Notes under the pieces: generated by a model | Databases searched by the model: none | Told to the model about the DNA's origin: nothing | What the model saw: only the letters and a program-made list of their open reading frames with translations | From: Candidatus Multivorans thiocomprendens | Lineage (GTDB): Bacteria; Acidobacteriota; Thermoanaerobaculia; Multivoradales; Multivoraceae | Assembly (NCBI GenBank): GCA_027493375.1 | Contig: JAPVWO010000250.1 | Span: 1,743-65,742, forward strand | DNA length: 64,000 nucleotides | Reading direction: 5' to 3' | Program-made: the position numbers and the translations under genes | Shown here: positions 1,947 to 18,922 of the stretch, piece by piece | How positions within the stretch are numbered: position 1 is the first letter of the stretch | Layout: every line of letters starts with the position of its first letter

Positions 1947-3121
1947 CCCAACCATTCGACCGGCCCCGTCAACTCCTGCCGCCCGAGGCGTACTTCGATT
2001 CCGGTTGGCTGGACCGGGAGGTCGACCGCCTGTTCGACCGCTCCTGGGTCTGGGCCGCCACCGAAGAGGACCTGAAGGAACCCGGCGACTTCCGGGCCTG
2101 CCGCGTGATGAACCACTCCCTGTTCGTGCTCCGGGACGGGGCCGGGGAGCTCCAGGCCTTCCACAACGTATGCCGCCACCGCGGCTGCGAGATCGTCGAA
2201 GGCAGCGGCAACCTGGGCAGCACGATCCGCTGCCCGTACCACCGCTGGACCTACGAGACGAACGGCGCCCTGCACGGCGTGCCCAACGAAGCGGAGTGTT
2301 TCGGCGCCGTCCCTCGCGAGAACCTCTCGCTCCATCGAGCCGCGGTCGGCGCCCATCGCGGCATGGTCTACGTGAATCCCGATCCGGAACCGCCCGAACC
2401 GTTCGACGAGTGGATCGCCGGACTCGACGACCACGCCTGGCCCCACGACCTGGCCGACGGCAGCCTGAGCTACGCGGGCGATGTCCGCTATGAGATGCAC
2501 TGCAACTGGAAGGTCTTCTACGAGAACGCGATCGACGGCTACCACCTCGGCTATCTCCACAACAAGACGCTGGGCAGCGTCTATCCCGACCGGAACGTCT
2601 GGCATCCCGTGGGCCGACACACCGTCTGGTACTCGACCGAGCGGGAAGGGGATCCGCAATCGTCCACCGTGCTGTCGGCCGAACTCGCCGACGGCGCGGG
2701 GGCGACCCGCCTGCCGGGCCACGAGGAGAGCTTCTATCCGGGCGTGGTCATGCTCTTTCCACTGACGATCCTGTCGCCGAGCCCCTGGGGCTTTCACGTC
2801 TCGGTGCTGGAACCGAAGACCCCGGACCTCACGACCATGTGGACGCAGAGCTGGACGACGTACGGATCGGCCTCACGCGCCGAAGCGGGCAAGGCGCCCA
2901 CGCTGATCAGCCTCGCGAATCAGGAGGGGCACCCGATGGAGTCCGGCAACTTCCAGCTCGAGGACATGTGGATCTGCGAGATGATCCAGCGCAACCTGCG
3001 GTCCCCGAAGTTCAAGGTCGGTCCCATGGCCGCCGGCTTCGGCGCGGAGTCGCCGATCATGCACTTTCAGCAGAGCGTGCTGGACTACCTGAACGGGGAT
3101 GCCGGCAAGGTGGGCGGCTGA
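1943..3121 (+). CDS. Rieske [2Fe-2S] non-heme-iron oxygenase, alpha subunit
   Basis: Rieske motif CRHRGCEI...CPYHRWTY is present. The mononuclear iron motif NAIDGYHLGYLH (D-x2-H-x4-H) is also present. No beta-subunit gene is adjacent. Confidence 0.9.
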   Translation: MTQPFDRPRQLLPPEAYFDSGWLDREVDRLFDRSWVWAATEEDLKEPGDFRACRVMNHSLFVLRDGAGELQAFHNVCRHRGCEIVEGSGNLGSTIRCPYHRWTYETNGALHGVPNEAECFGAVPRENLSLHRAAVGAHRGMVYVNPDPEPPEPFDEWIAGLDDHAWPHDLADGSLSYAGDVRYEMHCNWKVFYENAIDGYHLGYLHNKTLGSVYPDRNVWHPVGRHTVWYSTEREGDPQSSTVLSAELADGAGATRLPGHEESFYPGVVMLFPLTILSPSPWGFHVSVLEPKTPDLTTMWTQSWTTYGSASRAEAGKAPTLISLANQEGHPMESGNFQLEDMWICEMIQRNLRSPKFKVGPMAAGFGAESPIMHFQQSVLDYLNGDAGKVGG

Positions 3122-4251
3122 TGGACTTCGTCATCCTCGCCATCCCCTACATGAGACGCCTCGGCGAACGGGTCGGCCGCGCAGGATCGGACCCGAACCG
3201 GTTCCAGGCGCTGATGGCGAATCTCCGGACCCAGATGACATTCGCCGAGTCGGTCGGCTACACCGGCTTCTGCATGACCGAGCAGCACCTGCAGGTGGAA
3301 GGGATCGAGACGACGACGAATCCGCTGTTCTGGGACTACTTCGTCGCCCAGCACACCGAGCGGATGCGCGTCGGCCAGCTCGGCATGAACCTGACAGCGG
3401 TCAACCCGATTCAATTGGCCGAGAACCTGGCGATGCTCGACCACTTCACCGGCGGCCGCATGTTCGCCGGCTTCACCAGGGGCAACACGCCAAGGTGGAC
3501 CGGCACGTTCGGCCAGCACATCGGGATCACGGCGACACACTCCGACAAGTCGGAAGTGGACCGACGCAACCGCCGCGCGTTCGAGGAGAACTGGCGCCTC
3601 GTGAAGGCGCTCTGGACGCAGGAGGTGGTGAGCATCTCGGGCGAGTTCTGGCAGGCGCCGCCGGCGATGGACTGGACGTTCGCACCCACGAGCGAATGGT
3701 CGCCCGGGTCGATCACCAGTGAAGGCACGCTGAAGGAGATCGGGATCGTTCCCCGCCCGCTGCAGAACGACCCCCACCCGCCGGTCTACGCGCCGTTCAG
3801 CTACAGCATGGGGACCGCGAAGTTCTGGGCCCGCGAGGGCGGCAAGATGATGGGCATGTTCAACGAGTCGAAGGAGGAGTTCATCCCCCTGACCCTGGAC
3901 GTCTGCCTGGAGGAAGCGCTGCAACACGGCCGGATCATCGGACCCAACGACATGCTCGCCCTGGGCGGACACCTGATCATGGGACGAAACCCGGCCGAGA
4001 CGCAGAAGCTCTACGAAGGCTTCGAGTGGCTGTTCAACTTCGCCTACAACGCACCTCCCTACCACGTGCCGATGGGCCGGCTGTGGATGGGGTCGCGCCA
4101 GCAGGTGCTCGACCACGTGGGGCGGCTCAACGAGGCGTTCGGCATCGAAGAGTTCTTCCTCTGGCACCACGTCGGCTGGTTCGAGCAGGACGAGGAGATG
4201 GCGATGCTCCACGAGTTCGCGGAGGGCGTCATCGGCCCCCTTTCCTCGTGA
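3121..4251 (+). CDS. Luciferase-like (LLM class) flavin-dependent oxidoreductase, divergent
   Basis: ATG at 3121 overlaps the Rieske gene stop (TGATG). The translation MDFVILAIPY...AESVGYTGFCMTEQHL...GQLGMNL has the N-terminal TIM-barrel pattern of LLM enzymes. The longer ORF that starts at 2839 is just the same frame read through the Rieske gene. Confidence 0.55.
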   Translation: MDFVILAIPYMRRLGERVGRAGSDPNRFQALMANLRTQMTFAESVGYTGFCMTEQHLQVEGIETTTNPLFWDYFVAQHTERMRVGQLGMNLTAVNPIQLAENLAMLDHFTGGRMFAGFTRGNTPRWTGTFGQHIGITATHSDKSEVDRRNRRAFEENWRLVKALWTQEVVSISGEFWQAPPAMDWTFAPTSEWSPGSITSEGTLKEIGIVPRPLQNDPHPPVYAPFSYSMGTAKFWAREGGKMMGMFNESKEEFIPLTLDVCLEEALQHGRIIGPNDMLALGGHLIMGRNPAETQKLYEGFEWLFNFAYNAPPYHVPMGRLWMGSRQQVLDHVGRLNEAFGIEEFFLWHHVGWFEQDEEMAMLHEFAEGVIGPLSS

Positions 4252-4264
4252 ACCGCCGCGGCGC

Positions 4265-5467
4265 TCAGAGTTCGGCCGAGACCGGCGAACCGTCGCTCAG
4301 ACTGTCGCTCGGATAGACCACGACCTGCTCGCCGGGCTCAAGGCCGCCAAGAACCTGGGCTTCCCGCGCGTTCCGCTCGCCGACCTCGATCTCCCGAAGG
4401 GTCGCACGGCCTCCCGCGACCGCGAACACCGCCCAGTTCTCGTCGCGCCGGAACAACGCCCCGGTCGGCGCCTTCAGTTCGTCTCCGCTCTCCCAGACGA
4501 CGACCCGGGTTTCGACCCGGAAGCCGTCGCCCAGGCCGGCCCAGACCGCGGGCGGATCGACGATGTCGATGACCACGTTCACCCGCTGCTCTTCCACGCC
4601 GAGCGCCGAGATCTTCGTGAAGCCCGACGGTTCCACCCGGCGCAGCCGGCCCTGCAGCGGGCGATCGCCACCCCATCGATCGATCAGTACGCGCTGTCCC
4701 GAGCGCATGCGGACGGCGTCCTTCGACAGATAGTCCGTCACCACTTCGATCCGCGCCGGATCGCCGACCTCGAGCAGGGCTTCGCCAGCCGGAACGACGG
4801 ACTCGCTCTCGCGCACGCGACGAAGCACGACGCCCGAAACCGGCGACACGATCCGGATTGCCGTGCCGTTCATGTCCTCGGCGCTCTCGGCGCTGAACCG
4901 CAGCAGTCGGACCCGCGCCGCCTGCAACTCGCTGCGGGCCGTGCGCACCGCGTAGTCGGCTGCCTCGACGGCTTCCTGCCGGGTGTCGAGGTCGAGCTGG
5001 GCGCTCTCCATCGTCTCGACCGAGACGATTCCCTCCTGACTCAGCCGCAGGTAGCGTCCCGCCTCGGAGCGCGAGTAGGCGAGTTCGGCCGCCGCCCGCT
5101 CGTAGTGCGCCTCGGCCTGGCCGAGCGCGGCGGTCGCGGTCTGCACTACCGCCTCCGCCTCGGCCCGGCTACGGGCGTCGAGAAGCACCGGCGCGGACGG
5201 CAGGAAGATCGCGAGCACCGTCTCGCCAGTCACCACGACATCACCGGGCTCGAGTTCGATTCGCAGCACGCGGCCGGCGAGCGGCGCCGAGATCACGAAG
5301 CGATCCCGGACCCTGGTCTCGCCCTCTTCGTCGATCGTCACCTCCAGCGGTCCTCGCGTCACCTGCGCGAGCTCCGCCGGCACCGGCTGCGGGCGCGTGC
5401 CGAGAAACGCGGCGGCCGCGACCACGACCAAGCCCACGCCCCACAACACCCAGCGCCGCGTCATCAT
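4265..5467 (-). CDS. Efflux transporter periplasmic adaptor (HlyD/MacA-type membrane fusion protein)
   Basis: N-terminal TM segment (WVLWGVGLVVVAAAAFL). An A/E/R-rich coiled-coil hairpin follows (ARSRAEAEAVVQTATAALGQAEAHYERAAAELAY...). The C-terminus looks like a beta-barrel. It lies directly downstream of ABC permease and ATPase genes. Confidence 0.8.
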   Translation of the reverse strand: MMTRRWVLWGVGLVVVAAAAFLGTRPQPVPAELAQVTRGPLEVTIDEEGETRVRDRFVISAPLAGRVLRIELEPGDVVVTGETVLAIFLPSAPVLLDARSRAEAEAVVQTATAALGQAEAHYERAAAELAYSRSEAGRYLRLSQEGIVSVETMESAQLDLDTRQEAVEAADYAVRTARSELQAARVRLLRFSAESAEDMNGTAIRIVSPVSGVVLRRVRESESVVPAGEALLEVGDPARIEVVTDYLSKDAVRMRSGQRVLIDRWGGDRPLQGRLRRVEPSGFTKISALGVEEQRVNVVIDIVDPPAVWAGLGDGFRVETRVVVWESGDELKAPTGALFRRDENWAVFAVAGGRATLREIEVGERNAREAQVLGGLEPGEQVVVYPSDSLSDGSPVSAEL

Positions 5468-5480
5468 CGGTTCCTTCTTC

Positions 5481-7850
5481 CTACTCGCGGGTCTTGAGAA
5501 CCGCGACCAGATCGAGTTCGTGGAGCTTACGCCGAACGGTCCAGGCCGACACGGCCATCGACCCGAGAACGGTCGCCGCGGAAACCAGGAACGTGTTCGG
5601 GTCGACCACCACCGGCAACCGGAACAGCTCGCTCTCGAAAGCGCTCATCACGCCGGCGATCATGCCGTAGCCGAGGAGCAAACCGAGTGGAATCGAGGCC
5701 ACGGTGAGGATCCCGAGCTCGCCCAGCAGGATCGAGGAGATCTCGCCGCGGGTGAAGCCGATCACCCGCAGGCTGGCGAGTTCACGGCTGGTCTCGGACA
5801 GGGAGATCCGCGCCGTGTTGTAGATGACGCCGAAGGCGATGATCACCGCGAAGAGCAGGTTGACGCTCATCATCATCGACATGTTGTCGAGCATGTAGGT
5901 CTGGATGTTCTCGAGCGCTGCGCTGCGCAAGGTCACGCCGGCCACCGCCGGCATCGCCTTCAACAGGCCGAACAGCCGTTCCTCGGCCAGCGCGTCGATC
6001 TTGAGCATCGCGCCGCTGATCGTGTCGTCGCGCCGCACCAGCCGCCGGAGCGACTCCTGCTCCATGTACGCCGTCACGCCGAGCAGATCGTCGACGGTGT
6101 CGGTCAGCACGACCTCGCGCACCGGCCTGCCGTCTTCCATGATCTCGACCATCAGCGTGTCGCCCGGCTCGACCTGCAACTGCTCCGCCAGCAGCGTGGA
6201 CAGGACGAGACCCGGCCGGTCGAGCCGGATGGCGCGATAGTCCACATCGACCACGCGCTGCAACCTCGCATCGGCCGTCAGCGCCTGGATCGCCGTCTGC
6301 TTCTGCAGGTGGCCGTTGCGCAGCCGCGCGGCGATACCGTTCGTCGGCTCCACCTGCAGCACGCCGGAGAGGGCCGCGAGTTCGTGCACCGCGCTTCGTT
6401 CGACCGGCTCGAAGAAGCTCACCGACAGGTCCTGGCGCTGGATGATGTTGAACTGCACTTCGAGCAGTTCGTCCATCGAATCCATCATCGCCGAGCCCAC
6501 GACCATGATCGCGCCGGCGAAGGCGATGCCCACGATCGACAGGCCCGCCCGCACCGGGCGTCGCGACAGGTTGCGGAGCACCATCCTCGCGGGCTGCGAC
6601 AACCATCGCCGGGCGCCCAGCCGTTCGAACAGGGAGACCCGGAAGGTCTCGGGCGCCGCCGGGCGCATCGCTTCGGCGGGCGGCAGCGAGACGACGCTGC
6701 GCACCGCGCCCAGGGCGCCCACCGTCGCGGCGACGAGGCTCACTCCGACGGCGATCAGGATGCTCGACGCCGACACGCTGTAGATCAGGAGGGGGAAGCG
6801 GAAGTACTCCATGTAGAGGCCTAGCATCGCTTCGGCCAGCAACAGGCCGGCGCCGATCCCGAGCAGGGCGCCGAGGGCCACCACGACGACGGCCCACTGC
6901 ACGTAGTGGACGCCGAGCCGGACGTTCGAGTAGCCGAGAGCCTTGAGCGCCGCGATCTGTTCGCGCTGCACCGCGACCGTTCGCCGCAGGACCACGTTGA
7001 GCAGGAACGTGGCCACGGCGATGAAGATCAACGGCACCAGCAGTCCCATGTTCTCGAGCTGCGTCAACTCGTTCTGGAGGTACCAGTTCGAGGTCTGGTC
7101 CGCACGTGGAATCGCGCCCAGACCGCCGTAGGGATCGAGAATCGCGTCGAGTTCGACGATCACCGCGCGCTCGAGGCTGGGCGACCGGTCGGTCAGCGTC
7201 AGGGCCACGTCGTTGAACCCGCCCTCCATCTCGAACGCGGTGGCCAGGTGCCGCCGGGTCATCCACAGGAAGCCGAAGTGCTTCGGATCCGGAAACAGTT
7301 CTCCCGGACCGATGCCGTAGACGAACTCCGGGCTGAGCGCTATGCCGACGATCTCCAGGGGCTGGCGGCGACCGTTGATGACCGCGAACAGGCGATCGCC
7401 CAGGTCGAGCCCGTGAGCTTCGGCGAAGCGCTCGCCAACCAGGGCCTCCTCCGCCCGGTCCGGGTCCAGGAACCGCCCGCGGCGCAGCGCGACATCGTTG
7501 AGCGCCGGCCGGCCGCGGTCCGGCAGGGAGATCAGGCGTCCATTGATCGGATCGGTGACTCCGGGCACGTCCAGCGAGACGCTCACGACCACCCGGGTCT
7601 GGACCTGCCTGACTCCCGGGATCGCCGCGATGCGCTCCTCGATCCAGTTGGGGACGCGCTTGGCGCCGGCGAACACGTCGGCGAAGGAGTAGCGGGTGTA
7701 GTAGGCGTCGCGGGTCGTGAGCAGCGAGCCGAACACTCCCTGCGCCATGACCAGCAGCGCGATCCCCGACGAGACGACCAGGGCGATCGCCAGTACCTGG
7801 GACCGAACGTTCCAGAGGTCGCGCAGCAGTTTGCGGTCGAGGGCTCTCAT
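5481..7850 (-). CDS. ABC transporter permease with two FtsX-type domains (YbbP/MacB-like)
   Basis: 789 aa with two repeats, each a large periplasmic loop followed by a 3-4 TM bundle. Motifs such as [11 protein letters not shown] and [11 protein letters not shown] are typical of FtsX-family permeases. It sits next to its ATPase. Confidence 0.8.
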
Positions 7851-7854
7851 CGTC

Positions 7855-8591
<737 letters not shown>

Positions 8592-8592
<1 letters not shown>

Positions 8593-10748
8593 CAAGGCAG
8601 CTCGATGTCGGGGGGCGCCGCGGACAGCTCGACGATCATCTCCGTGAACTCGCCCGGCACCGTATCGACCCGGATCATCCCGCCGTGCTCGCGCACTACA
8701 TCGGCCGAGAGCGCCAGACCGAGGCCAGTTCCCTGGTCGGTCGGCTTGGTCGTGAAGAAGGGATTGAAGATCTTGTCGACGATGTCCTGCGGAATGCCGT
8801 TGCCGTTGTCCCGGATCCGGACCTCAACGCCGTCGTCCATCTTTCGCGTCGTCACCGTGAGCGTCGGTTCGTAGGACTCATCGTCCGTTGTGAGCCGCTT
8901 TTCGTTCGTGGCGTAGCAGGCGTTGCCGACCAGGTTGAGGAACACGCGGCCAACGTCCTGGGCCACGACCTCCAGGGTGCCCAGATCCGGATCGAAGTCC
9001 TTCTCGATGGTCAGGTTGAAGTCCGAGTCGGAAGCCCGGGCGCTGTGGTAGGCGAGCCCGATGTGCTCGTCGACCAGACGGTTGATGTCGGCTTCCTCGC
9101 GACCGGCCGCGCCCCGGCCCATCTTCAGCATGTCGGTGACGATCCGGTTGGCGCGCTCGCCGTGGTTCCGGATCAGCTTCAGGTTGCCGCTCAGGTCCTC
9201 GAAGATCTCCCCGATCTCCTCCCGCTGGTCCTCGTCCAGGCTGCCGTCCTCGTTCTCCTTCATGATCTCCTCGACCTCTTCGAGGAGTTCCGAGGAAACT
9301 TCCGAGAAGTTCTTGACGAAGTTGAGCGGGTTCTTGATCTCGTGGGCGACCCCGGCCGTCAGCTCGCCCAGCGCCGCGAGCTTCTCGCGCATGACGATCT
9401 GGTCCTGGGCCTTCTGCAGGTCGACCAGCACGACCTCCAGTTCCTCGTTCTTCTCCTTCAGTTCATCCGCCAGCTTCTCGACCAGGTTCAGCCGCTGCAC
9501 CTCCAGCGCGTGCCGGCGGAAAACCTCGAGGGCGGCCGCCATGTCGGCGACCTCGTCCTTGCCGCCAATCCCGATCTCGGCTTCCAGGTTGCCTCCGGCC
9601 ATCTCCCGCATGCTGCTCGAGAGCGCCTCGAACCGCCGCACCAGCAGCCGTCCGACGAACAACCAACCGATGAAGACCGCTCCGGCGATGCTCAGGACGT
9701 TGAGCCCCAGGAGCAGTGCGCGCCCGGTGCGGATCGCCTGGGACGCGGCCTTGGTCGCCGCATCGGTGCGGGTCCGGGAAGCGGCGACCAGACTCTCGAC
9801 GTCGCCACCGAGTTCGACCGCCAGATTCTGGTTCTCGTCCAGCAGCGCCTGCTGCCGGTCGAGCGCGTCGACTTCCTGTCGTCTCAGGTCGAAGGCGGTA
9901 CGACTCTTCGCCAGCATCTCACCGAAGAGCGCCTCCAACCGATCCGAGGTCGCGGTTTCGTCGATCGCGCTGAGGGCGCGCTCGATACTCGTCGCCGCCG
10001 ACTCGTACCGCTCCTCGACCGGCTCGATCAGCGGCCGGTCGGTCAGCACCGCCAGGCTGTTCAGGAGCTGGTCGATGATCGTGACGTCCTGCTGAAGGCC
10101 CACCAGCACCCGGTAGCGGTCGATCTCCGGTTCCGAGAAGTGGACCTCACGGGAGGCGGGCGGCTGCTCGAACGACCGAAAGCCGGTCATCGCGTAGAAG
10201 AGCTGATTGTCGAGAGCGGGCACCAGAAGCGCCTCGATCCGGGTGTGGAGCGACTCCAGTTCCGACCGCAGCGCCTCGCTCTCCGCGCTCAGTTCGAAGC
10301 CCTCGGAAACCGACTCCCGGATCGCCGCGATGTTCCCGATGAGCTCCTCGCCACGAGCCTGGATGCTCAGGATCTCCGAGTCGCCGTCGAGTGACTCCTC
10401 GGACTCCGTCCCCCGGCTCATCAGGTCCTCGAGCTGGGCCTCGAAGGCACGTTGCGCCGGCAACATCTCGAACTCAGCCCGAGTCAGTTCGTCCTGGTTC
10501 GTCGTTGCGGTCAGCCTGGGGCCCGCGGCCACCAGTGTTCCGCTGCCCTGGGCGACGCCGAACGCCGCCGCCAGCTCCGGCACCGTTCCCTGGGTGACCC
10601 GGTTCTGCGAATCGCCGACCTGAGCGAAGGCGAACAGCGCCACCAGACTGGCCGCGAGAGTCAGGGCAGCCGCGCCGCCGATGCCGACGTAGAGCTGGGT
10701 GGCGATCCTGTAACGGGCCTCGGCCAGTCGTCGGAACCACGAGATCAT
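8592..10748 (-). CDS. Sensor histidine kinase with a large extracytoplasmic helical domain and HAMP
   Basis: Two TM segments flank a region of about 300 aa. HAMP is followed by a coiled coil. H-box [11 protein letters not shown] is present. The ATPase boxes [10 protein letters not shown] and GTGLGLALS are present. The start overlaps the upstream SBP stop (ATGA). Confidence 0.85.
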
Positions 10749-11959
10749 CGGTTCACCGCGGCTTCAAGACGCGTCGCGGGCCGATACCGGCCCCGTTCGT
10801 CGATCACGGTCAGGAACACGGCGTCGGAACCCTGGTTGTCCCCGTCTCCGAACACGAGGCGGAAGCCGTCGAGGTCGATCGAACCGGCATCGCGCAGCGT
10901 CTGAATGAACCGGTCCCGATCGACCGCCGTCCCGCAGCGCTCGAGTGCCTCGATCACGAGCCGTCCGGCGAGGTAGCCCTCGAACGAGACGAAACCGGGC
11001 TCGGCGCCGGGAGTATGGGCGCGCAGCGCGCGACGGTAGGCGGTGGCGACTCTGGAGGTTTGCGCGCTCGGAAACGGCACGACCTGGGTGACGTAGACGC
11101 CGGCGCCGCGTGGGCCGAGTTCTTCCGCGAGGGCATTGCTGCCCACGAAGGACAGGGTCATGAACACCGGATCGAGGCCGATGTGCCGGGCCCAGGAAAT
11201 CAGGCTGGCCACCGGCTGGTAGGCGCCCACGATGATGACGGCCTCCGGACGCCCCACCTCGATGTCGACAATGGCCGTCTTGACGGCGGTCGTGTTGCGC
11301 GGATAGACGCCGATGGCGACCGCCTCCATGCCGCGTCTGTCGAACGCGGCACGAACGCCCGCAAGGCCGGCACGCCCGAAGGAGTCGTTCTGAATGACGA
11401 CCGCGATCCGCTCGATGCCGAGATCCCTGGTCAGTCGCTCCACCATTTCCTCCGTCTCCTGGGCGTAGGAGGCGCGGAGGTTGATCACGTGCGGTTCGCC
11501 GCGGAGAAAGCCCGCGCCGGTGAACGGAGCGATGTACGGGACACCCGCCTCTTCGGCAACCGGTACCGCGGAGCGGGAGGTCGGCGTGCCGACGCCGCCG
11601 ACCAGCGCAAACACGCCCTCGTCCTCGATCAGGCGGCGCGTGTTGCCGATCGCCGCCTCCGGCTCGTAGCCGTCGTCCACCGTAACCAGCTCCAGGCGCC
11701 GGCCGTGCACGCCGCCGCCATCGTTGGCCTCCTTGAACGCCGCCTGGATGCCGAGCCGCATTCCTCTGCCCAGTTCGGCCGCCGGACCGCTGAAGGCGGC
11801 GGACTGGCCGAACAGGATGCGCTCGGCCGAAACGCCCGGCGTTCCTTCCGCCTCGCCCGGCGAGCCAGGCGGCTGAGCCGGCGACAAGGCCGGAGCGAAC
11901 AACGCCGCCGCGACCCAGGCTGACGCGGTCAGAGCTGTTCGAGCAGCACGTGCGCGCAT
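10745..11959 (-). CDS. Periplasmic solute-binding protein, Leu/Ile/Val-binding (Peripla_BP_6) type
   Basis: Start trimmed to the ATG at 11959, which gives signal peptide MRARAARTALTASAWVAAALFAPALSPA. The body reads ILFGQSAAFSGPAAELGRGM...VTVDDGYEP...FALVGGVGTP, typical of LivK-like binding proteins. The upstream part of the 557-aa ORF is Arg/Gly-rich and overlaps the RsbW-like gene. Confidence 0.75.
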   Translation of the reverse strand: MRARAARTALTASAWVAAALFAPALSPAQPPGSPGEAEGTPGVSAERILFGQSAAFSGPAAELGRGMRLGIQAAFKEANDGGGVHGRRLELVTVDDGYEPEAAIGNTRRLIEDEGVFALVGGVGTPTSRSAVPVAEEAGVPYIAPFTGAGFLRGEPHVINLRASYAQETEEMVERLTRDLGIERIAVVIQNDSFGRAGLAGVRAAFDRRGMEAVAIGVYPRNTTAVKTAIVDIEVGRPEAVIIVGAYQPVASLISWARHIGLDPVFMTLSFVGSNALAEELGPRGAGVYVTQVVPFPSAQTSRVATAYRRALRAHTPGAEPGFVSFEGYLAGRLVIEALERCGTAVDRDRFIQTLRDAGSIDLDGFRLVFGDGDNQGSDAVFLTVIDERGRYRPATRLEAAVNR

Positions 11960-11985
11960 CGCCCTCGGCTTCCCCGTGCGGCGGT

Positions 11986-12405
11986 TCAACTCCGGCGCTT
12001 GACCATGGTCACGTGGTTGCGGCCGCCTTCGCGGCTGTACGAAGTCTCGTCCATGAGGACCTTCACGAAGTGGACCCCCAGACCGCCGATCTTCCGTTCC
12101 TCCACGCGCGCGTCGAGGTCCGGCTCGGGGGCCTCGTGGAACGGGTCGAACGCCCTTCCGCCGTCGCGAACCTCGATCCGGACTTCGTCGTCGCTCGACG
12201 TGACCTCGATCTCGATCTCGCTGCTGCCAGGCTGACCGCCGCCGTGACGCACCACGTTCGTCGCCACTTCCTCCAAGCCGAGAACGATGGCGTAGGTCGT
12301 GTCCTGCGCCCAACCCTCCTCCGAGCCGAGCGCCTCCACCGCCTCCGAGACACCCGGAAGCTCCTCGATCCGGTTCGGAACACGCAGATGGAGAGTGGCG
12401 CTCAC
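11986..12405 (-). CDS. RsbW/SpoIIAB-like anti-sigma-factor-type serine kinase (HATPase_c_2)
   Basis: 139 aa. The pattern L..vp..i..l......v...g......y.i.lgleEvatNvvrHG is present, followed by IEVRDGGRAFDP and GGLGVHFVKVLMDE. The GTG start overlaps the PP2C gene stop (GTGA). Confidence 0.75.
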   Translation of the reverse strand: MSATLHLRVPNRIEELPGVSEAVEALGSEEGWAQDTTYAIVLGLEEVATNVVRHGGGQPGSSEIEIEVTSSDDEVRIEVRDGGRAFDPFHEAPEPDLDARVEERKIGGLGVHFVKVLMDETSYSREGGRNHVTMVKRRS

Positions 12406-13574
12406 TCGTCGGCGACACGCAAGGTCATGCAGGTCAGATCGTCGAACTGCGGCGCTTCACCGGCGAAGTCCTTCACGGCCTGCAGGATCATCTCCGCGGC
12501 TTCCCGGGCGCTCGGCGTCGGGGGGGCCTGGAACAGACCCTGGAGCGACTCCAGACCGAACTCCTCGTTCGACACGTTGATCGCCTCGGTGACTCCGTCC
12601 GTGAAGAAGACCACCAGATCTCCCGGGTTGAGCCGGACGTTGGCCTGCCCGTACTCGAAGCCGGGAATCGCCCCCAGGGCGAGGCCGCCCGTCAGTTCCA
12701 GCTCCTCCGAACTCCCGTCGGGATGAATGACCAGCGGAGGGTTGTGGCCACCGTTGGAGAAGGTGAGCACCCTGGTCGAGGGATCGTAGACGCCGTAGAA
12801 CACGGTGACGAACATCGCCGCCTCGTTCGTCTCGTTCAGCAGGTCGTTCACCTCCCGGAGGACCGTGGAAGGATCCTCGACCCCGATGGCCGCTCCCTTG
12901 AGCAGGGTGCGGCTCGACATCATGAACAAGGCCGCAGGCACGCCCTTGTCCGACACGTCGGCTACCGCGAGCCCGATCCGTCCCGCGTCGAGGTTGATCA
13001 CGTCGAAGAAGTCCCCCCCGACGTTGCGGGCGGCATGCATGCATCCGTAGACCTCGCAGTCGTCCAGGTGGGGGAAGGTGTCCGGCAGAATCGACTGCTG
13101 GATCTTCGTCGCCACATCGAGCTCGTTCTGTATCGCCACAAGCTTGTCCCGCGAGGCGAGCGCGGCGCGCCATTCGTCGAGGTGCCGCAGCGTCCGCTCG
13201 ATCGTGACCTCGAGGTCGGTGAAGTCGATCGGCTTGGTGACGAAGTCGAAGGCGCCGCGGTTCATTGCGGTGCGGATGTTCTCCATGTCGCCGTAGGCCG
13301 AGACGATGACCGAGCGGAGATCCGAGTTCACTTCGGGGATCTGCTGCAACAGGGTCAGACCGTCCATCTTCGGCATGTTGATGTCCGAGAGGACGATGTC
13401 GATGTCCTGCTTCTCCGCCAGAACCTCCAGCGCCTCGACGCCGTTGCCGGCGAACTCGAAGCCGTACTTGCCCCTGCGGATCTGGCGGCGCATGCGCTGG
13501 CGGACCAGCCGCTCCAGATCCGGCTCGTCGTCGACGACCAGGATCTTGTAGTCGGGATTGTCCCGATCGCCCAC
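12402..13574 (-). CDS. Response-regulator receiver fused to a PP2C/SpoIIE-type phosphatase (RsbU-like)
   Basis: The REC domain shows KILVVDDEPD...DIVLSDINMPKMDG...VIVSAYGD. The PP2C/SpoIIE part shows VGGDFFDV...AVADVSDKGVPAALFM...FFTDGVTEA...DDLTCMTL. Confidence 0.9.
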   Translation of the reverse strand: MGDRDNPDYKILVVDDEPDLERLVRQRMRRQIRRGKYGFEFAGNGVEALEVLAEKQDIDIVLSDINMPKMDGLTLLQQIPEVNSDLRSVIVSAYGDMENIRTAMNRGAFDFVTKPIDFTDLEVTIERTLRHLDEWRAALASRDKLVAIQNELDVATKIQQSILPDTFPHLDDCEVYGCMHAARNVGGDFFDVINLDAGRIGLAVADVSDKGVPAALFMMSSRTLLKGAAIGVEDPSTVLREVNDLLNETNEAAMFVTVFYGVYDPSTRVLTFSNGGHNPPLVIHPDGSSEELELTGGLALGAIPGFEYGQANVRLNPGDLVVFFTDGVTEAINVSNEEFGLESLQGLFQAPPTPSAREAAEMILQAVKDFAGEAPQFDDLTCMTLRVADE

Positions 13575-13606
13575 CTAGACGACCACCCCTTCCGCGCTCT
13601 AACCCT

Positions 13607-13942
13607 CTACCCCGCGGCCGCCAGGGCGTCGGCCTGCGAGTCGTAGATCTGGATGATGCGGTTGAAGCCGCTGATCTCGAACACGGACTGAACGGGATCG
13701 CTCAGCGCGCAGAGAGAGATGCTCACGTTGCGCTGGCCGAGGGTCTTGGCGACCAGCAACACGACCCTCAGGCCGGCGCTGCTGATGTAGGCGAGCTGAC
13801 CCAGGTCGATGACCACGGCCTGGACATCCTCGCCGATCGCCCCCTGCAACTGGCGTTCAAAGTCCTGGGAGTTCGAGCTGTCGACCCGGCCCTCGACTTT
13901 GGCTACAAGAACCTTGTCGTGATTCTCCACCTGGACGTTCAT
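13607..13942 (-). CDS. STAS-domain anti-sigma-factor antagonist (RsbV/SpoIIAA-like)
   Basis: 111 aa. The segment VVIDLGQLAYISSAGLRVLL contains the usual phosphorylatable Ser context. The start overlaps the transglutaminase stop (ATGA). Confidence 0.85.
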   Translation of the reverse strand: MNVQVENHDKVLVAKVEGRVDSSNSQDFERQLQGAIGEDVQAVVIDLGQLAYISSAGLRVVLLVAKTLGQRNVSISLCALSDPVQSVFEISGFNRIIQIYDSQADALAAAG

Positions 13943-14847
13943 ACTCTCTGCCTCCCGTTGCCGTTTCTTCCGCTAAGTCGCGTCTGATCAACTGCATTCA
14001 CTATCACATCCACCGCGATTCGCGCATCCCCGGCACCCTGAAACACCCCCCGCGTGGGAGAGACGTCGGCATAGTCCCGGCCAGCGGCCACGCGAATGTG
14101 CCGCTGATCGCTGAAGGTCGTGTTTGTTGGATCGAAGCCGACCCAGCCGGCCCCCGGCAGCCAGCATTCTACCCACGCGTGACTGGCGCCCGCCGTCACC
14201 CGCTCGCCGGCCCGGCCCGTGTTGTGGAGATAGCCGGACACGTAGCGGGAGGGGATGCCCCAGGAACGGGCGATCGCGATCATCAGGTGAGCGTAGTCCT
14301 GACACACGCCCCGGCCCGACTCCAGCAGGTGCTCGATGGGCGAATCGGCCGCGGTGCTGCCCGGCTCGTACTCGAAGCGCTCGCGGATCCCGTCGGACAC
14401 GCGGACCAGGCTCTCCATCGGATCTTCCTCCGGGCGGAACCCCTCGCCGCGGACGAAGTCCTCGAGCGCGGGTGACGGCCGAGCCAGCACGCTGGGCTCC
14501 ACAAAGTGCCAGTACTCCGGCAGGTGGCGCAGGCTTCGCACTTCCTCCCAGCCGCCGACCGCTTCCACGCTCGAGGTCGCGGCGAGTTCCGCCCGGAACC
14601 GGGACGTGATCACGAGTTCCCCGTGGCGCCGATGGACATTGAGAACGTGGCGGCGGTTGCCGAAGCAGTCCCGCTCCGGACTCAGAGACGCGGCCGGGAC
14701 CGTCTCGATCTCGAAGCGACGCACCCTCTGGCCCGACGTCCCGGCCGGCTGCAGACAGAGCAGCAGAACGCAGCCGCGGACGCTCTCCGAGTACTCGTAT
14801 CTCGTCCGGTGCTCAACGTCGTAACGGAGCGGGCGGGTAGACGTCAC
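13939..14847 (-). CDS. Transglutaminase-like cysteine peptidase family protein
   Basis: Start trimmed to the GTG at 14847 (GTGA overlap with the alpha-E stop). The N-terminal YDVEHRTRYEYS matches the Bact_transglu_N pattern. The catalytic core shows GRGVCQDYAHLMIAIARSWGIPSRYVSGY and HAWVECWLPGAGWVGFDPTN. Confidence 0.9.
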   Translation of the reverse strand: MTSTRPLRYDVEHRTRYEYSESVRGCVLLLCLQPAGTSGQRVRRFEIETVPAASLSPERDCFGNRRHVLNVHRRHGELVITSRFRAELAATSSVEAVGGWEEVRSLRHLPEYWHFVEPSVLARPSPALEDFVRGEGFRPEEDPMESLVRVSDGIRERFEYEPGSTAADSPIEHLLESGRGVCQDYAHLMIAIARSWGIPSRYVSGYLHNTGRAGERVTAGASHAWVECWLPGAGWVGFDPTNTTFSDQRHIRVAAGRDYADVSPTRGVFQGAGDARIAVDVIVNAVDQTRLSGRNGNGRQRV

Positions 14848-15806
14848 CGCAGCGGAGAATCCTCGATCGCGTAGTCCACGAAGGCGCCGAGCACGGCCTC
14901 GTGCAGATCGCGGGCGGACTGGCTGACCCGTTCCAGCAGTTCTTCGGGCTCCGACGCTTCCGGCCAATCGTAGAGGATGAGCGCCTCGGCCCGGCCTGCC
15001 AACCGCCGGGCGGCGGCGTCCGCGTCGACGCCAGGTCCGCCGCCGAGTCCTTCGAGTTCCGCCGCCGCGGCCTGCACGGTGGCGAGCACGGAGCCGGGCA
15101 GGGATGGATCGGCGACCAGCAGGTCGAGGACCCGGTCCGGCTTCATCTCGATCCCGTGGACGCGGCCGTAGGCCTCCAGGGCATGGTGAGTGCGCAGCAT
15201 GCTGGCCCAGCCCAGCGTTCGCCTCTCCGTGAGGCGGCTCAGTTCGATCTGGGCAAGCAGCAGGGACACCGCGAGTTGTGCCCGCTCGATCGCCCTGCCG
15301 AGGCGCATGAACCGCCAGGCCGCGCCACGATACATCGTCGCATCCGCGACCCCGACGAAGTTGTGGATCTCGCTGCGCGTCCGGGCGTAGAAGACCTCCG
15401 GCGTCCTCCAGACATCGACGGCCTCGAGATCGCGGATCCGCAGCCAGGCGGCGTTCAGGCAGGTCCACATCTCGCCGCTGATGCAGTGACGCATCTGGCG
15501 GGCGTTCTCGCGCCCGCTGGCCACAGCGCTCCACACGGAATCCGGATTCGAACGCTCGAACGTCAGGTCGTCCGCCAGCGTGAAGGCGTCCGCCAGGGCG
15601 AACTCCTCCGTCTCCGGCAGGAATTCCTCGCCCGGAGGCGGCAACCGCTTCATGCACCGGTAGATCCGCTTCCAGCCGAAGTGAATCTCCTCGACCGAAC
15701 GGTCGACCAGAAACTGCACCTGCAACTCCAGCAGGCGGCTCAGGTAGCCGGCCCTCGCCAGGTAGCGAGCCATCCAGTAGACCCCCTGGGCACTGCGCGA
15801 GAGCAT
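14844..15806 (-). CDS. Alpha-E domain protein (DUF403 family)
   Basis: The ATG at 15806 overlaps the ATP-grasp stop (ATGA). The N-terminus MLSRSAQGVYWMARYLARAGYLSRLLE matches the characteristic alpha-E start (LLSRvAe..yWmgRY.ERAe). The protein looks all-helical. Confidence 0.8.
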   Translation of the reverse strand: MLSRSAQGVYWMARYLARAGYLSRLLELQVQFLVDRSVEEIHFGWKRIYRCMKRLPPPGEEFLPETEEFALADAFTLADDLTFERSNPDSVWSAVASGRENARQMRHCISGEMWTCLNAAWLRIRDLEAVDVWRTPEVFYARTRSEIHNFVGVADATMYRGAAWRFMRLGRAIERAQLAVSLLLAQIELSRLTERRTLGWASMLRTHHALEAYGRVHGIEMKPDRVLDLLVADPSLPGSVLATVQAAAAELEGLGGGPGVDADAAARRLAGRAEALILYDWPEASEPEELLERVSQSARDLHEAVLGAFVDYAIEDSPLR

Positions 15807-17248
15807 CAGAGGTCGACCACCCAGAGATCCTTGCCGCCGCCGCCCTGGCTCGAGTTCACGACCAGGCTGCCCCTGCGCAGGGCGACCCGGCAGAACGCAC
15901 CGGGCACGATCCGGGTCTCGTTTCCGGTCAGGACGAAGGGGCGAAGGTCGACGTGGCGCGGTTCGGCGTGACCTTCGATCAGGCAGGGCGACCGCGACAG
16001 CGCCAGGGTGGGCTGCGAGATGAAGTCCGCGGGATCGGCCCGAAGCGTCTTCGCATACTCGTCCCGTTCTTCCGGCGTCGAGTGCGGGCCGACCAGCATG
16101 CCGTAGCCCCCCGACTCGCCGACCCGCTTGACGACCAGACGCTCCAGGTTGTCCAGCGTGTACTCCAGATCCTCGGGCCGCCTGCATAGGCGGGTCTCGA
16201 CGTTCTGCAAGAGCGGCTCTTCGGCCAGGTAGTAGCGAACCATGTCCGGCACGTAGGCGTAGACGCTCTTGTCGTCGGCAACGCCCGTTCCCGGAGCGTT
16301 GGCCAGGGCCACGTTGCCGCGCTTGAACGCGTTCATCAGGCCCGGAACGCCCAGCAGGGAGTCCTCGCGGAAAACCAGCGGGTCGAGGAAATCGTCGTCC
16401 ACGCGGCGGTAGATCACGTCGACCCGTTTGAGGCCGGAGGTCGTCCGCATGTAGACGAACCCGTCGTTGACCAGCAGGTCCTGCCCTTCGACGAGTTCGG
16501 CGCCGATCTCGTGAGCCAGGAACATGTGCTCGTAGAACGCCGAGTTCCAGGTGCCGGGAGTGAGCAGCGCCAGGCACGGGTCCGGCCTGCCGCCGGGCGA
16601 CAGCTCGCAGAGGGTCTGCCGCAGCAGGCTGCCGTACTGCTCGACGTCCTGAACCCGGGACCGCCGGTAGAGCCGGCGCAGGCCGGCCTTCACCGCCTTG
16701 CGATTGGCGATCATGTAGGACACGCCCGAGGGCACGCGCAGGTTGTCCTCCAGCACCATGAAGCCCTCGTGCGTGCGGACGATGTCCGTGCCGCAGATCG
16801 TCACCCAGACATCGTTGGGTACGCTGACCCCGCGCATCGCCACCCGGTACTGCGGGCAGCCGAGGATGACGTCGGCGGGAATCACGCCGTCCCTGACGAC
16901 GCGGCAGTCGCCGTAGACGTCGGCGAGGAACAGGTTGAGCGTCCGGATCCGCTGCACCAGACCGGCTTCGAGTTCCCGCCACTCCGCCAGGGCGAGCAGG
17001 CGCGGCACGCAGTCGATCGGGATGATCCGTTCCTCCGCCTCCTCGTCGCCGTAGACGGTAAAGGTGATTCCCTCCTGGGAGAACGAGCGCGTCACCCGTT
17101 CCTGGATCGTGTTCAGGTCGTCGTCGGGCAGTGCCCCGAGCGCCTCGACGACCGCCTGGCAGTGGTCGCGAGGCTCTCCCTCCGCGACGAACATCTCGTC
17201 GCAGATCGCAGGATCGAAGTCGTAGAGGCTGAAGTCCACCGGACCCAC
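15806..17248 (-). CDS. Circularly permuted type-2 ATP-grasp protein (DUF404/DUF407 amidoligase family)
   Basis: 480 aa. Segments such as FTVYGD...ERIIPIDCVPRL, GVSYMIANR, NAPGTGVADDKSVYAYVP and KRVGESGGYGMLVGP match the family usually found with alpha-E and transglutaminase genes. Confidence 0.85.
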   Translation of the reverse strand: MGPVDFSLYDFDPAICDEMFVAEGEPRDHCQAVVEALGALPDDDLNTIQERVTRSFSQEGITFTVYGDEEAEERIIPIDCVPRLLALAEWRELEAGLVQRIRTLNLFLADVYGDCRVVRDGVIPADVILGCPQYRVAMRGVSVPNDVWVTICGTDIVRTHEGFMVLEDNLRVPSGVSYMIANRKAVKAGLRRLYRRSRVQDVEQYGSLLRQTLCELSPGGRPDPCLALLTPGTWNSAFYEHMFLAHEIGAELVEGQDLLVNDGFVYMRTTSGLKRVDVIYRRVDDDFLDPLVFREDSLLGVPGLMNAFKRGNVALANAPGTGVADDKSVYAYVPDMVRYYLAEEPLLQNVETRLCRRPEDLEYTLDNLERLVVKRVGESGGYGMLVGPHSTPEERDEYAKTLRADPADFISQPTLALSRSPCLIEGHAEPRHVDLRPFVLTGNETRIVPGAFCRVALRRGSLVVNSSQGGGGKDLWVVDL

Positions 17249-17443
17249 TCGGGCGGTTTGCCGAACGGGCGTATCCTACAGGTACGGAAAGAGTAAGCCC
17301 TCCCGCCGGAGGTTGCGGGCGGACTGGGACGGCCAGCCGCTTGGACGCCGCGGCCCTCCGCCCCGTATCATCCTGTAAGCCGCCGGCGACGCGCCCCGAC
17401 TGCGCCGCGGCCGAACCTGAACTTCAACCCAAGGAGCACGAAG

Positions 17444-18019
17444 ATGACCGGAGCGCGCTCCCACAGCCGGCAAGCCGGCTTCACCCTGATCGAACTCCTG
17501 ATCGTCGTGGCGATCATCGGCATCATCTCCGCCTTGCTGGTGCCGAACCTGATGACCGGGCTGCAGAACGCGAACCAGACCCGCACCCAGGCCGACATGA
17601 AGGCCGTGGGCTCCGCCTGGATGCAGTGGCTGACCGACCAGGTCAGCGCCGCCGCCGCCGGCTCAAGCACGACCGCCACGTTCAGTTGGAGCGAGTTCAC
17701 CTATCCCGACTTCTCCCACGCGGACCTCTCCGCCCTGCTCCGTCCGTCGAACACGTTCTTCTACCTGCAGGACGTGCCCGAACGAGACGGCTGGAACAAC
17801 CCCTACCGGTTCGGCTTCGCCGGTTCGGACCAGCTCCTCGGCACCCAGGTCATCGGCATCTGGAGCGGCGGCCGCGACGGCTCGAACAGCGAACAGCCGC
17901 AGTCCACCTACGAGATCGGCGCGTTCCGCGGCACCGACTTCAACGAGGATCTGGTCTGGGCCGACGGCTACTGGGTCCGCTGGCCGGGTAGCGCCGCGGA
18001 AGTCGACACGTCCGAGTAG
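17444..18019 (+). CDS. Prepilin-type N-terminal cleavage/methylation domain protein (type IV pilin or T2SS pseudopilin-like)
   Basis: AAGGAG Shine-Dalgarno sequence precedes the ATG. The N-terminus reads ...RQAGFTLIELLIVVAIIGIISALLVPNL, the class III signal with G/F cleavage site and Glu5. Confidence 0.8.
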   Translation: MTGARSHSRQAGFTLIELLIVVAIIGIISALLVPNLMTGLQNANQTRTQADMKAVGSAWMQWLTDQVSAAAAGSSTTATFSWSEFTYPDFSHADLSALLRPSNTFFYLQDVPERDGWNNPYRFGFAGSDQLLGTQVIGIWSGGRDGSNSEQPQSTYEIGAFRGTDFNEDLVWADGYWVRWPGSAAEVDTSE

Positions 18020-18049
18020 CCGGCCGCGCCCGGCCCGCCCCGGCGGCGA

Positions 18050-18922
18050 CTAGATCTGGGAGAACGCGGTCGGCCGCAGGAACACGTTCTCGATCCGTGA
18101 GACGGTTCCCTTGTAGTAGTCCATGTCGCGCATCCGGATCCACTCGGGATGGCCGCCGAACGCCTGCCAGTGTTCCCGGTGCGCCTCCATGTCGGGGGCG
18201 GACAGGATGTAGACGAGGGCCGGAACGTCCGCACCGACCAGGAGTTCAGCAAACAGGAGGGGCGCCATGTCGACATCCCGCATGATGTCGATTTCACCGT
18301 TGTCGAACATGTGGACCTTGCGGCGGGCCGTCTCCTCGTTGTGGCTCTCGTACAGGCGCAGCTCGAAGATCCGGTCCTGCCCGGCCGCGGTCTGGGGCGG
18401 AAGCTCCATCGCCGGCATGCCCTTGAAGGCCCGCAGCAACCAGCTCTCCACGCGCTCGTAGATCGGCTCCTGCCTCGGCGTCGCGTACATCGGCGCGGCG
18501 GCTTCCAGGTACTCGGCGTCGGCTTCGAGCGTCGACTTCATCGCCGTGAAGTCCCCGACAGTCGGGAAGGCGATGATCGCCCACACGGAGAGCGAATCCA
18601 CCGGGTCGACCGGCTCGTCCGCCTCGGCGGGCGGCTCGACTCCGAACACGCCCACCCTGTCGATCCCGGCGCGGTTGAGCGCCGGCACCAGGGCGTTTTC
18701 CAGGTAGGCGAGGACGGTCTGCCGGCTGTCCTCGTCGGCCAGGCGGTAACGGCGGATCTCGTAGTACTCCCGCCCCGATTCGCTTTCCGCCGCGGCATGC
18801 CCGTCGCCCGCCGCATCCGCCACCGGCGCTTCGGCCGGTGCGCAGGCCAGCACCAGCGCGGCAGCCGCGGCGCCGGCCAGGAAGACGGGAAGCGAACGCC
18901 TGGATTGCTGGGTCATCGACAT
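18050..18922 (-). CDS. NIPSNAP family protein (two NIPSNAP repeats) with signal peptide
   Basis: Start trimmed to the ATG at 18922 (MSMTQQSRRSLPVFLAGAAAAALVLACA). The repeats read YYEIRRYRL...L.YLENALVPALNRAGI..VGVF and IFELRLYESHN... Confidence 0.65.
   Translation of the reverse strand: MSMTQQSRRSLPVFLAGAAAAALVLACAPAEAPVADAAGDGHAAAESESGREYYEIRRYRLADEDSRQTVLAYLENALVPALNRAGIDRVGVFGVEPPAEADEPVDPVDSLSVWAIIAFPTVGDFTAMKSTLEADAEYLEAAAPMYATPRQEPIYERVESWLLRAFKGMPAMELPPQTAAGQDRIFELRLYESHNEETARRKVHMFDNGEIDIMRDVDMAPLLFAELLVGADVPALVYILSAPDMEAHREHWQAFGGHPEWIRMRDMDYYKGTVSRIENVFLRPTAFSQI

Follow-up and report, generated by a model that had tools for sequence, protein, structure and literature searches.

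Whether the genes that accompany a circularly permuted ATP-grasp, alpha-E and transglutaminase triad can indicate what this widespread system does is the question raised by an array of eleven genes in a 64,000-nucleotide stretch of DNA from Candidatus Multivorans thiocomprendens (Acidobacteriota; contig JAPVWO010000250.1, positions 1,743 to 65,742; hereafter the window, meaning the whole stretch analysed). The array joins the triad to a five-gene signalling cassette, consisting of a STAS protein, a receiver-PP2C phosphatase (REC-PP2C), an RsbW-like kinase, a periplasmic solute-binding protein (SBP) and a membrane histidine kinase (HK), and then to three exporter genes (Table 1). The comparisons described below favored, with moderate confidence, a composite of the triad (A), the cassette (B) and an appended exporter (C), in which the cascade encoded by the cassette would target the triad and ammonium uptake in a nitrogen-related role. 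Each part comes from a known family; what is new is that, across phyla, the triad keeps as neighbors an ammonium transporter (Amt) gene and a cassette that encodes a full set of sensor, phosphatase and partner-switch proteins. A full-text literature search found no paper on the combination of triad, partner-switch cassette and Amt, although a brief mention in Iyer et al. (2009) is possible. The cassette and Amt stay beside the triad across at least five phyla, which provides a testable lead to the role of the triad.

The five cassette genes were conserved together as a block across phyla, with hosts in Dehalococcoidia/Chloroflexota, Candidatus Binatia, Candidatus Azotimanducaceae (Gammaproteobacteria), Alphaproteobacteria and Candidatus Poriferisodalis (Actinomycetota), taxon labels here and below being those of the deposited records. 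Identity to the orthologues outside the Acidobacteriota lineage of the window was 58–71% for REC-PP2C, 57–68% for the SBP and 43–56% for the HK. Because the same block was found in every informative REC-PP2C locus outside the lineage, the cassette is, by this comparison, a unit in its own right. Twenty cassette loci outside the lineage were available (loci carry L numbers); the SBP gene was followed by a kinase homologue in 15 of them, and the kinase was absent or the contig ended in the other five (L018, L025, L027, L095, and L176). Such counts come from collection scans and describe a sample, not a census, so that the figures given here and below hold among the matches listed. The window's own lineage was not among the matches listed for the genome scan, and generic receiver-domain patterns prevailed in the metagenome scan, which was run with the PP2C alignment and gave three full-length matches (L095–L097) and a remainder that served as controls. 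Very short contigs among the 20 were L027 and L095.

Triad genes of the same subfamily lay within 10 kb of the cassette in seven of the 20 loci, in four arrangements. The triad precedes the cassette, as in the window, in L095; the cassette precedes the triad on the same strand in L012, and also in L014 and L175, where a DUF2461 gene separates cassette from triad and the triad contains Amt; triad and cassette are convergent in L015, which has an extra STAS gene directly upstream of the ATP-grasp gene, and divergent in L023 and L018, the latter retaining decayed triad remnants only. The ATP-grasp proteins of cassette-linked triads in other phyla were 68–75% identical to that of the window, compared to 86–96% inside the lineage. 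STAS was the cassette gene that repeatedly touched the triad: it overlaps the transglutaminase gene in the window, follows it in L095 and lies upstream of the ATP-grasp gene in L015. The other loci of the same two scans, which were receiver-domain matches and not cassette orthologues (145 loci, 1.64 Mb), provided an internal control. Triad genes flanked 4/15 cassette loci of the two scans vs 0/145 controls (Fisher p = 5e-5), and Amt flanked 4/15 cassette loci vs 1/145 controls (p = 2e-4).

The third recurrent partner was Amt, which was found within the triad in L010, L011, L014, L015, and L175, while an Amt or Amt-like gene stood beside the cassette in the absence of the triad in L013, L019, L022, and L096. 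The triad, Amt or both were near 12 of the 20 cassette loci outside the lineage, and all-against-all clustering of neighboring open reading frames (ORFs) yielded no further recurrent cassette neighbor. L176, in which a distant triad paralogue lies 6 kb away with Amt upstream, was rejected as a triad-linked locus, since its ATP-grasp and transglutaminase proteins were 36 and 33% identical and represent a different subfamily.

Some details of these loci are recorded separately. The two STAS genes of L015 (Dehalococcoidia) are at 19537–19863 (-) and 9526–9852 (+); one heads the cassette and the second immediately precedes, on the opposite strand, the ATP-grasp-Amt-alpha-E operon. In L018 (Candidatus Azotimanducaceae), abutting fragments of a transglutaminase gene (75% coverage) and an ATP-grasp gene (25% coverage) at 8380–9424 (-) lie beside the cassette and look like a decaying triad. 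The DUF2461 gene of L014 (6693–7379) and L175 (15674–16360), two related Chloroflexota loci, lies between the kinase and ATP-grasp genes. A second, distant Amt-like family (28–32% identical) directly adjoins the cassette STAS gene in L015, L019, and L022.

Proximity of triad and cassette survives at least four orders or orientations, which is not predicted by simple decay of a single block. This bears on another account of the locus, according to which triad, cassette and exporter are three functionally unrelated operons packed head-to-tail in a compact high-G+C genome, and what recurs elsewhere is left over from a single block that spread horizontally and is decaying. The lack of triad genes at all control loci, the separate association of Amt with the triad and with the cassette, and the extra STAS gene of L015 also disagree with it. 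The account nevertheless draws on the cassette loci that have neither triad nor Amt, on the decayed remnants in L018, and on a cross-phylum identity compatible with block transfer. Further, 4-nt overlaps are frequent elsewhere in the 68% G+C window (ORF pairs 1943/1946, 30323/30326, 48248/48251, and 48943/48946), and because of this the overlaps of the array are operon-style packing typical of the genome and not special in themselves. Within the lineage, all 11 genes occur in the same order in four distinct relatives, with transglutaminase identities of 90% (L001), 78% (L004), 70% (L006), and 67% (L008), and the nearest transglutaminase and PP2C relatives are metagenome-assembled genomes (MAGs) labelled Acidobacteriota or Holophagales. 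These relatives also keep the upstream synteny, with a divergent pilin-like gene, NIPSNAP, a hydrolase and NosD, so that ordinary vertical inheritance could explain the linkage there; the downstream neighbor varies between a luciferase-like and a DUF2911 gene. The tight coupling of triad and cassette is specific to the lineage, the two being elsewhere at least 188 nt apart (one locus not measured) or on opposite strands. Taken together, three unrelated operons are considered rather unlikely.

Several observations weigh against the composite with a nitrogen-related cascade. The triad occurs in thousands of bacterial genomes, far more widely than the cassette; 8/20 cassette loci outside the lineage had neither triad nor Amt within reach, L027 being one of the eight; and L010 and L011 (56% transglutaminase identity) carry a triad with Amt between the ATP-grasp and alpha-E genes and no cassette nearby. 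The high cross-phylum identity of the proteins (PP2C 58–71%, ATP-grasp 72–75%) suggests that the genes spread horizontally, in which case some of the co-occurrences may go back to one ancestral linkage and not be independent. An unlinked sigma factor is also a possible output of the cascade, and the case for nitrogen is built on adjacent Amt genes and on transcriptomes of distant Proteobacteria. In the window and at ten related loci, the DNA ahead of the ATP-grasp gene held nothing convincing as a sigma-54 promoter (the best candidate in the window had 4 mismatches), and an Rfam search of 4000–18200 at E <= 1 gave only a sub-threshold sucC match, with no glutamine or other riboswitch in the leader. 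The absence of both elements upstream hints faintly that the cassette could serve as the alternative input in these organisms. As for the carriers, several bear names typical of marine sponge symbionts (Candidatus Poriferisodalis; MAGs named 'Holophagales bacterium'), and high similarity of REC-PP2C, SBP and ATP-grasp across five phyla (loci L015–L026, L095, and L096) together with such names suggests horizontal spread within one habitat.

The exporter combines in one operon an ATPase of the ATP-binding cassette (ABC) type, an FtsX-type permease with a MacB periplasmic core domain and a HlyD-family membrane-fusion protein (MFP). The first-pass annotation of this DNA had suggested that all eleven genes could be one signal-controlled unit that makes and exports, or regulates, an ATP-grasp-derived product; in the export version, a peptide or metabolite would leave by way of the MacB-type pump. 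Its linkage of the triad to the STAS/REC-PP2C/RsbW module and the sensor pair extends beyond this contig, to four relatives with the full array and to other phyla in different orders; the export half found no comparative support, and Amt as a recurrent third partner had been missed. Rather than forming part of one conserved unit, ABC, FtsX and MFP genes accompany the cassette only in this lineage and occurred at no cassette or triad locus outside it. The closest permease orthologues outside the lineage, which were 63% (L177) and 57–58% (L178) identical, belong to stand-alone ABC-FtsX-MFP operons with unrelated neighbors. Spacing between the HK and ABC genes is variable even within the lineage, with a 1-nt overlap in the window, L001 and L004, 15 nt in L006 and 116 nt in L008. 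Because of this absence from outside loci, the stand-alone orthologues and the variable spacing, the exporter looks like an independent operon that was appended in this Acidobacteriota lineage, and it is not to be assumed part of the triad pathway.

Production and export by a single unit would be in line with the single uninterrupted co-directional run, with the 1-nt HK/ABC overlap where it occurs and with the high conservation of the exporter genes in the lineage (FtsX permease 85–99% identical). It would also agree with the consensus scans, of limited value in an Acidobacteriota genome, in which no internal sigma-70-like promoter was found in the array and terminator-like sites were not above chance (5 vs 5.6 expected, none within the intergenic gaps of the array), which also counts for the earlier linkage of triad and cassette. 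However, the triad proteins have no signal peptide and no export-related feature, and thousands of genomes carry the triad without such a pump. Considering also the distribution and spacing of the exporter genes, a make-and-export unit is judged improbable. The likeness to MacAB/YbbAP (type VII) exporters lies in the MacB/LolD/YbbA-like ATPase, the double-FtsX permease with its MacB core and the HlyD adaptor. The differences are the lineage-specific attachment to the cassette, the lack of an outer-membrane factor or TolC-like gene in the array (locus only), and NCBIfam similarities of the ATPase (best to LolD, DevA, MacB, and YbbA) that all remained below the equivalog cut-offs.

The catalytic and phospho-acceptor residues of the signalling proteins are intact. 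REC-PP2C holds the only receiver domain of the array, fused N-terminally to the phosphatase, and this receiver keeps the acidic pocket, the phospho-acceptor Asp64, Ser92 and Lys114. Residues D15, D16, D64, S92, and K114, together with the PP2C residues D188, D191, D206, D209, D326, D378, and D379, which include the metal-binding aspartates, were invariant in 16 orthologues. The single-domain STAS protein has a phosphorylatable serine, Ser55, in the motif YISSAGLRV; the serine was kept in 28/29 cassette STAS sequences and the motif was conserved barring conservative changes. In alignment, this serine falls at the position of Ser58, the phosphorylated residue of SpoIIAA from Bacillus subtilis. 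In the RsbW-like kinase, a HATPase_c_2 protein, the N, G1 and G2 boxes were conserved in 26 sequences; against NCBIfam it gave weak RsbW/SpoIIAB matches that did not reach the equivalog cut-offs.

The sensor pair resembles TorT-TorS, which senses trimethylamine N-oxide. Two membrane segments of the HK enclose a domain that matches the TorS sensor (PF21689, 31.9 bits vs a cut-off of 27), TIGR02956 (TorS) matches residues 19–440, and an SBP gene is coupled to the kinase gene. The kinase differs from TorS in ending with HATPase_c, with no receiver or HPt domain and so not of the hybrid type, and the SBP belongs to the LivJ/AmiC family (Peripla_BP_6) and not to the TorT family. The N-terminus of the SBP is signal-peptide-like, and among solved structures 4kv7, a 'probable Leu/Ile/Val-binding protein', came closest (1e-68). 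No importer permeases are present near the SBP gene, and since this gene is also translationally coupled to that of a kinase with a TorS-type sensor, the SBP is here regarded as a co-sensor and not as a transport component.

The working proposed for the locus is inferred as regards phosphotransfer partners, ligand class, output and nitrogen role. The periplasmic SBP would capture a small, probably nitrogenous, solute and would dock on the TorS-like periplasmic domain of the HK, as TorT does on TorS. The HK would then phosphorylate Asp64 of REC-PP2C. For this step there is a receiver with its phospho-acceptor fused to PP2C and a kinase gene alongside, and phosphotransfer between the two is presumed because their genes are adjacent and no other receiver is encoded in the locus. 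REC-PP2C and the RsbW-like serine kinase, acting against each other, would determine whether STAS Ser55 is phosphorylated, and whichever partner is left free (STAS without phosphate or the released RsbW-like protein) would act on the output, by direct protein binding or through an unlinked sigma factor. No domain that would mark a cognate sigma factor was detected in the array or its flanks, nor at the related loci annotated with Pfam. Because no sigma factor is encoded and the triad and Amt are the only recurrent neighbors of the cassette, these two are the presumed target of the cascade, and because Amt is the recurrent third partner, the physiology served would probably be nitrogen limitation or ammonium handling.

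A more specific version, in which STAS or the released RsbW-like protein binds the triad complex or Amt directly and thereby controls whether an amide-linked compound or protein tag is formed or hydrolysed when the SBP reports a nitrogenous solute, is put forward as an unlikely but consequential possibility. If true, a system left enzymatically orphan since 2008–2009 would receive its first regulatory circuit and physiological role, and partner switches would gain a new class of output. The ligand of the SBP, the phosphorylation state of STAS, and nitrogen or ammonium supply as a condition are handles on triad function. The wiring might also run in reverse, the cascade being the substrate of the triad: the ATP-grasp enzyme would add, and the transglutaminase-like enzyme would remove, an amino-acid or peptide tag on STAS or another component of the cascade. 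The repeated contact of the STAS gene with triad genes (window, L095, and L015) would suit such a scheme, as would the protein- or peptide-tagging role that Iyer and colleagues reportedly predicted for the triad in 2009. Most triads, however, have no STAS partner of any kind, and the only special conserved feature of STAS is its canonical phospho-serine motif, so that reverse wiring is held to be highly improbable.

The cascade, as preferred here with the triad and Amt as its target, has counterparts among known partner switches. The RsbK-RsbY-RsbV-RsbW pathway of Bacillus cereus is a partner switch whose REC-PP2C phosphatase is under the control of a sensor kinase. The likeness extends to the HK and receiver-PP2C, the phospho-serine STAS antagonist and the RsbW-type kinase. 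In contrast to that pathway, the kinase of the window is not a hybrid and has a periplasmic TorS-like domain and a separate SBP, no sigma factor is present at the locus, and the neighbors are the triad and Amt instead of a sigB operon. Partner switches that do not act on a sigma factor include HptB-HsbR-HsbA of Pseudomonas, SypE-SypA of Vibrio fischeri, and SiaABCD (PMC6482189, PMC10120452, PMC7647112). In these, as proposed for the cassette, a PP2C phosphatase and an RsbW-like kinase set the phosphorylation state of a small antagonist (of STAS type in HsbA and SypA), and the output can be an enzyme or other non-sigma target. HsbR and SypE each unite kinase, phosphatase and receiver in a single polypeptide and the SiaC antagonist is not a STAS protein, whereas the cassette has separate genes; its input is an SBP-assisted kinase, and the presumed triad/Amt output is new. 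The cassette adds a candidate non-sigma output to partner-switching systems.

The triad itself consists of three adjacent co-directional genes with CP_ATPgrasp, Alpha-E, and Transglut_core plus Bact_transglu_N domains. An Anbu (proteasome beta-like) peptidase is a facultative associate of the triad and defines an 'Anbu operon' subtype. No proteasome-type domain was found in the 11 array genes or the scanned flanking genes. The transglutaminase has its catalytic Cys-His-Asp, with the cysteine in GVCQDYA, the histidine in SHAWVE and the aspartate in GFDPT, as read from the translation. The sole solved relative of the ATP-grasp protein is a structural-genomics entry, 3n6x, without a defined substrate. 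Compared to the Anbu-operon triad (Iyer et al., 2009; Valas and Bourne, 2008), the same three Pfam families occur here in the canonical order and tightly coupled; the array differs in having no Anbu peptidase, in the absence of a detected sigma-54 promoter and in being physically joined to a partner-switching and two-component cassette.

Published data connect the triad to nitrogen in other bacteria. Among the genes that depend most strongly on sigma-54/NtrC in nitrogen-limited Burkholderia cenocepacia is the triad cluster I35_5080-83 (PMC5491218); an Anbu/triad operon is induced in nitrogen-limited Pseudomonas putida (PMC5666114, citing Hervas 2008); and triad domains vary together with those of urea metabolism in marine metagenomes (PMC3597751). 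The nitrogen tie is common to the Burkholderia and Pseudomonas triads and to the present locus, where it comes through Amt adjacency (PMC5491218, PMC5666114).

The array forms a co-directional run whose reading frames and stop codons are without problems; gene starts were set from the longest consistent ORFs and from independent gene calls on related contigs. Pfam and NCBIfam supported the domain assignments of all 11 genes, so that both the minus-strand layout and the gene identities of the first-pass annotation were borne out. The spacing it described, with gaps of 4–32 nt, was also correct, but its five 4-nt overlaps and one 1-nt overlap became four and two on direct reading, as the ATP-grasp and alpha-E genes overlap by 1 nt and not 4. 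A GGGAGG motif is located 8–13 nt upstream of the ATG of STAS.

Table 1. Genes of the array, their junctions, the presumed promoter region and the Amt (PF00909) genes of Chloroflexota-type loci. Positions refer to the window unless a locus is named.
Feature	Position	Strand	Description
Circularly permuted ATP-grasp ligase	15806..17248	-	First array gene; 480 aa; GTG start; PF14403 1.5e-151, PF04174 1.1e-136 (CP_ATPgrasp_1/2)
Alpha-E protein	14844..15806	-	320 aa; ATG start; PF04168 1e-59
Transglutaminase-like cysteine protease-fold enzyme	13939..14847	-	302 aa; GTG start; PF08379 (Bact_transglu_N) and PF01841 (Transglut_core), 1.6e-28 with 8.1e-20
Single-domain STAS protein, anti-sigma-antagonist type	13607..13942	-	111 aa; PF01740 1.5e-20, TIGR00377
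Receiver fused to PP2C (SpoIIE/RsbU-type) phosphatase	12402..13574	-	390 aa; PF00072 and PF07228 6.3e-52
RsbW-like serine kinase/anti-sigma-type protein	11986..12405	-	139 aa; PF13581 (HATPase_c_2) 3.9e-27
LivJ/AmiC-type periplasmic SBP	10745..11959	-	404 aa; PF13458 (Peripla_BP_6) 5e-64
Membrane HK	8592..10748	-	718 aa; membrane segment, TorS-like periplasmic sensor, membrane segment, HAMP, HisKA, HATPase; PF21689, PF00672, PF00512, PF02518
ABC ATPase, MacB/LolD/YbbA type	7855..8592	-	245 aa; PF00005 (ABC_tran)
YbbP-like double-FtsX permease with MacB periplasmic core domain	5481..7850	-	789 aa; PF02687 in 2 stretches and PF12704 (MacB_PCD)
HlyD-family membrane-fusion adaptor (MFP)	4265..5467	-	Last array gene; 400 aa; PF13437, PF16576
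Junction ATP-grasp to alpha-E			1-nt overlap (TGATG), alpha-E ATG on ATP-grasp stop
Junction alpha-E to transglutaminase			4-nt overlap (GTGA)
Junction transglutaminase to STAS			4-nt overlap (ATGA)
Junction STAS to PP2C			32-nt gap
Junction PP2C to RsbW-like			4-nt overlap
Junction RsbW-like to SBP			26-nt gap
Junction SBP to HK			4-nt overlap
Junction HK to ABC			1-nt overlap with kinase stop
Junction ABC to FtsX			4-nt gap
Junction FtsX to MFP			13-nt gap
Divergent intergenic region, ATP-grasp/pilin-like genes	17249..17443	.	Presumed array promoter region
Amt, L010	7632–9023		Between ATP-grasp and alpha-E genes
Amt, L014	9018–10400		Between ATP-grasp and alpha-E genes
Amt, L015	16417–17697	-	Between ATP-grasp and alpha-E genes
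Amt, L175	18299–19681		Between ATP-grasp and alpha-E genes

The array is bordered upstream by a divergent pilin-like (N_methyl) gene at 17444–18019 (+) and downstream by a convergent luciferase-like monooxygenase gene ending at 4251 (+). The latter closes a plus-strand run at 501–4251 of an MFS_2 transporter, a Rieske ring-hydroxylating oxygenase alpha subunit and the luciferase-like monooxygenase, of which the first two ORFs overlap by 4 nt, and this run is probably a separate catabolic operon. Neither a second copy of array genes nor an Amt gene was found in the 64-kb window. Third-position G+C of the real array genes was 0.86–0.91; the many long antisense ORFs that overlap them on the plus strand of 4265–17248, up to 569 aa in length, are the usual high-G+C artefact and not genes.

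In the divergent intergenic region, the conserved block was found to be a sigma-70-like promoter of the pilin-like gene, TGGACG-18-TATCAT at 17342–17371 (+), which an intergenic alignment showed to be kept in all five lineage members. This block was rejected as a promoter of the array, as it belongs to the divergent gene, and the side facing the ATP-grasp gene was poorly conserved. The leader contains, roughly 50 nt before the start codon of the ATP-grasp gene, a G+C-rich hairpin with a T-rich tail behind it (CCTCCGGCGGGAGG GCTTACTCTT; 17299–17312, minus strand). The hairpin was retained only in the closest relative, L001, and could be a leader structure or due to chance.

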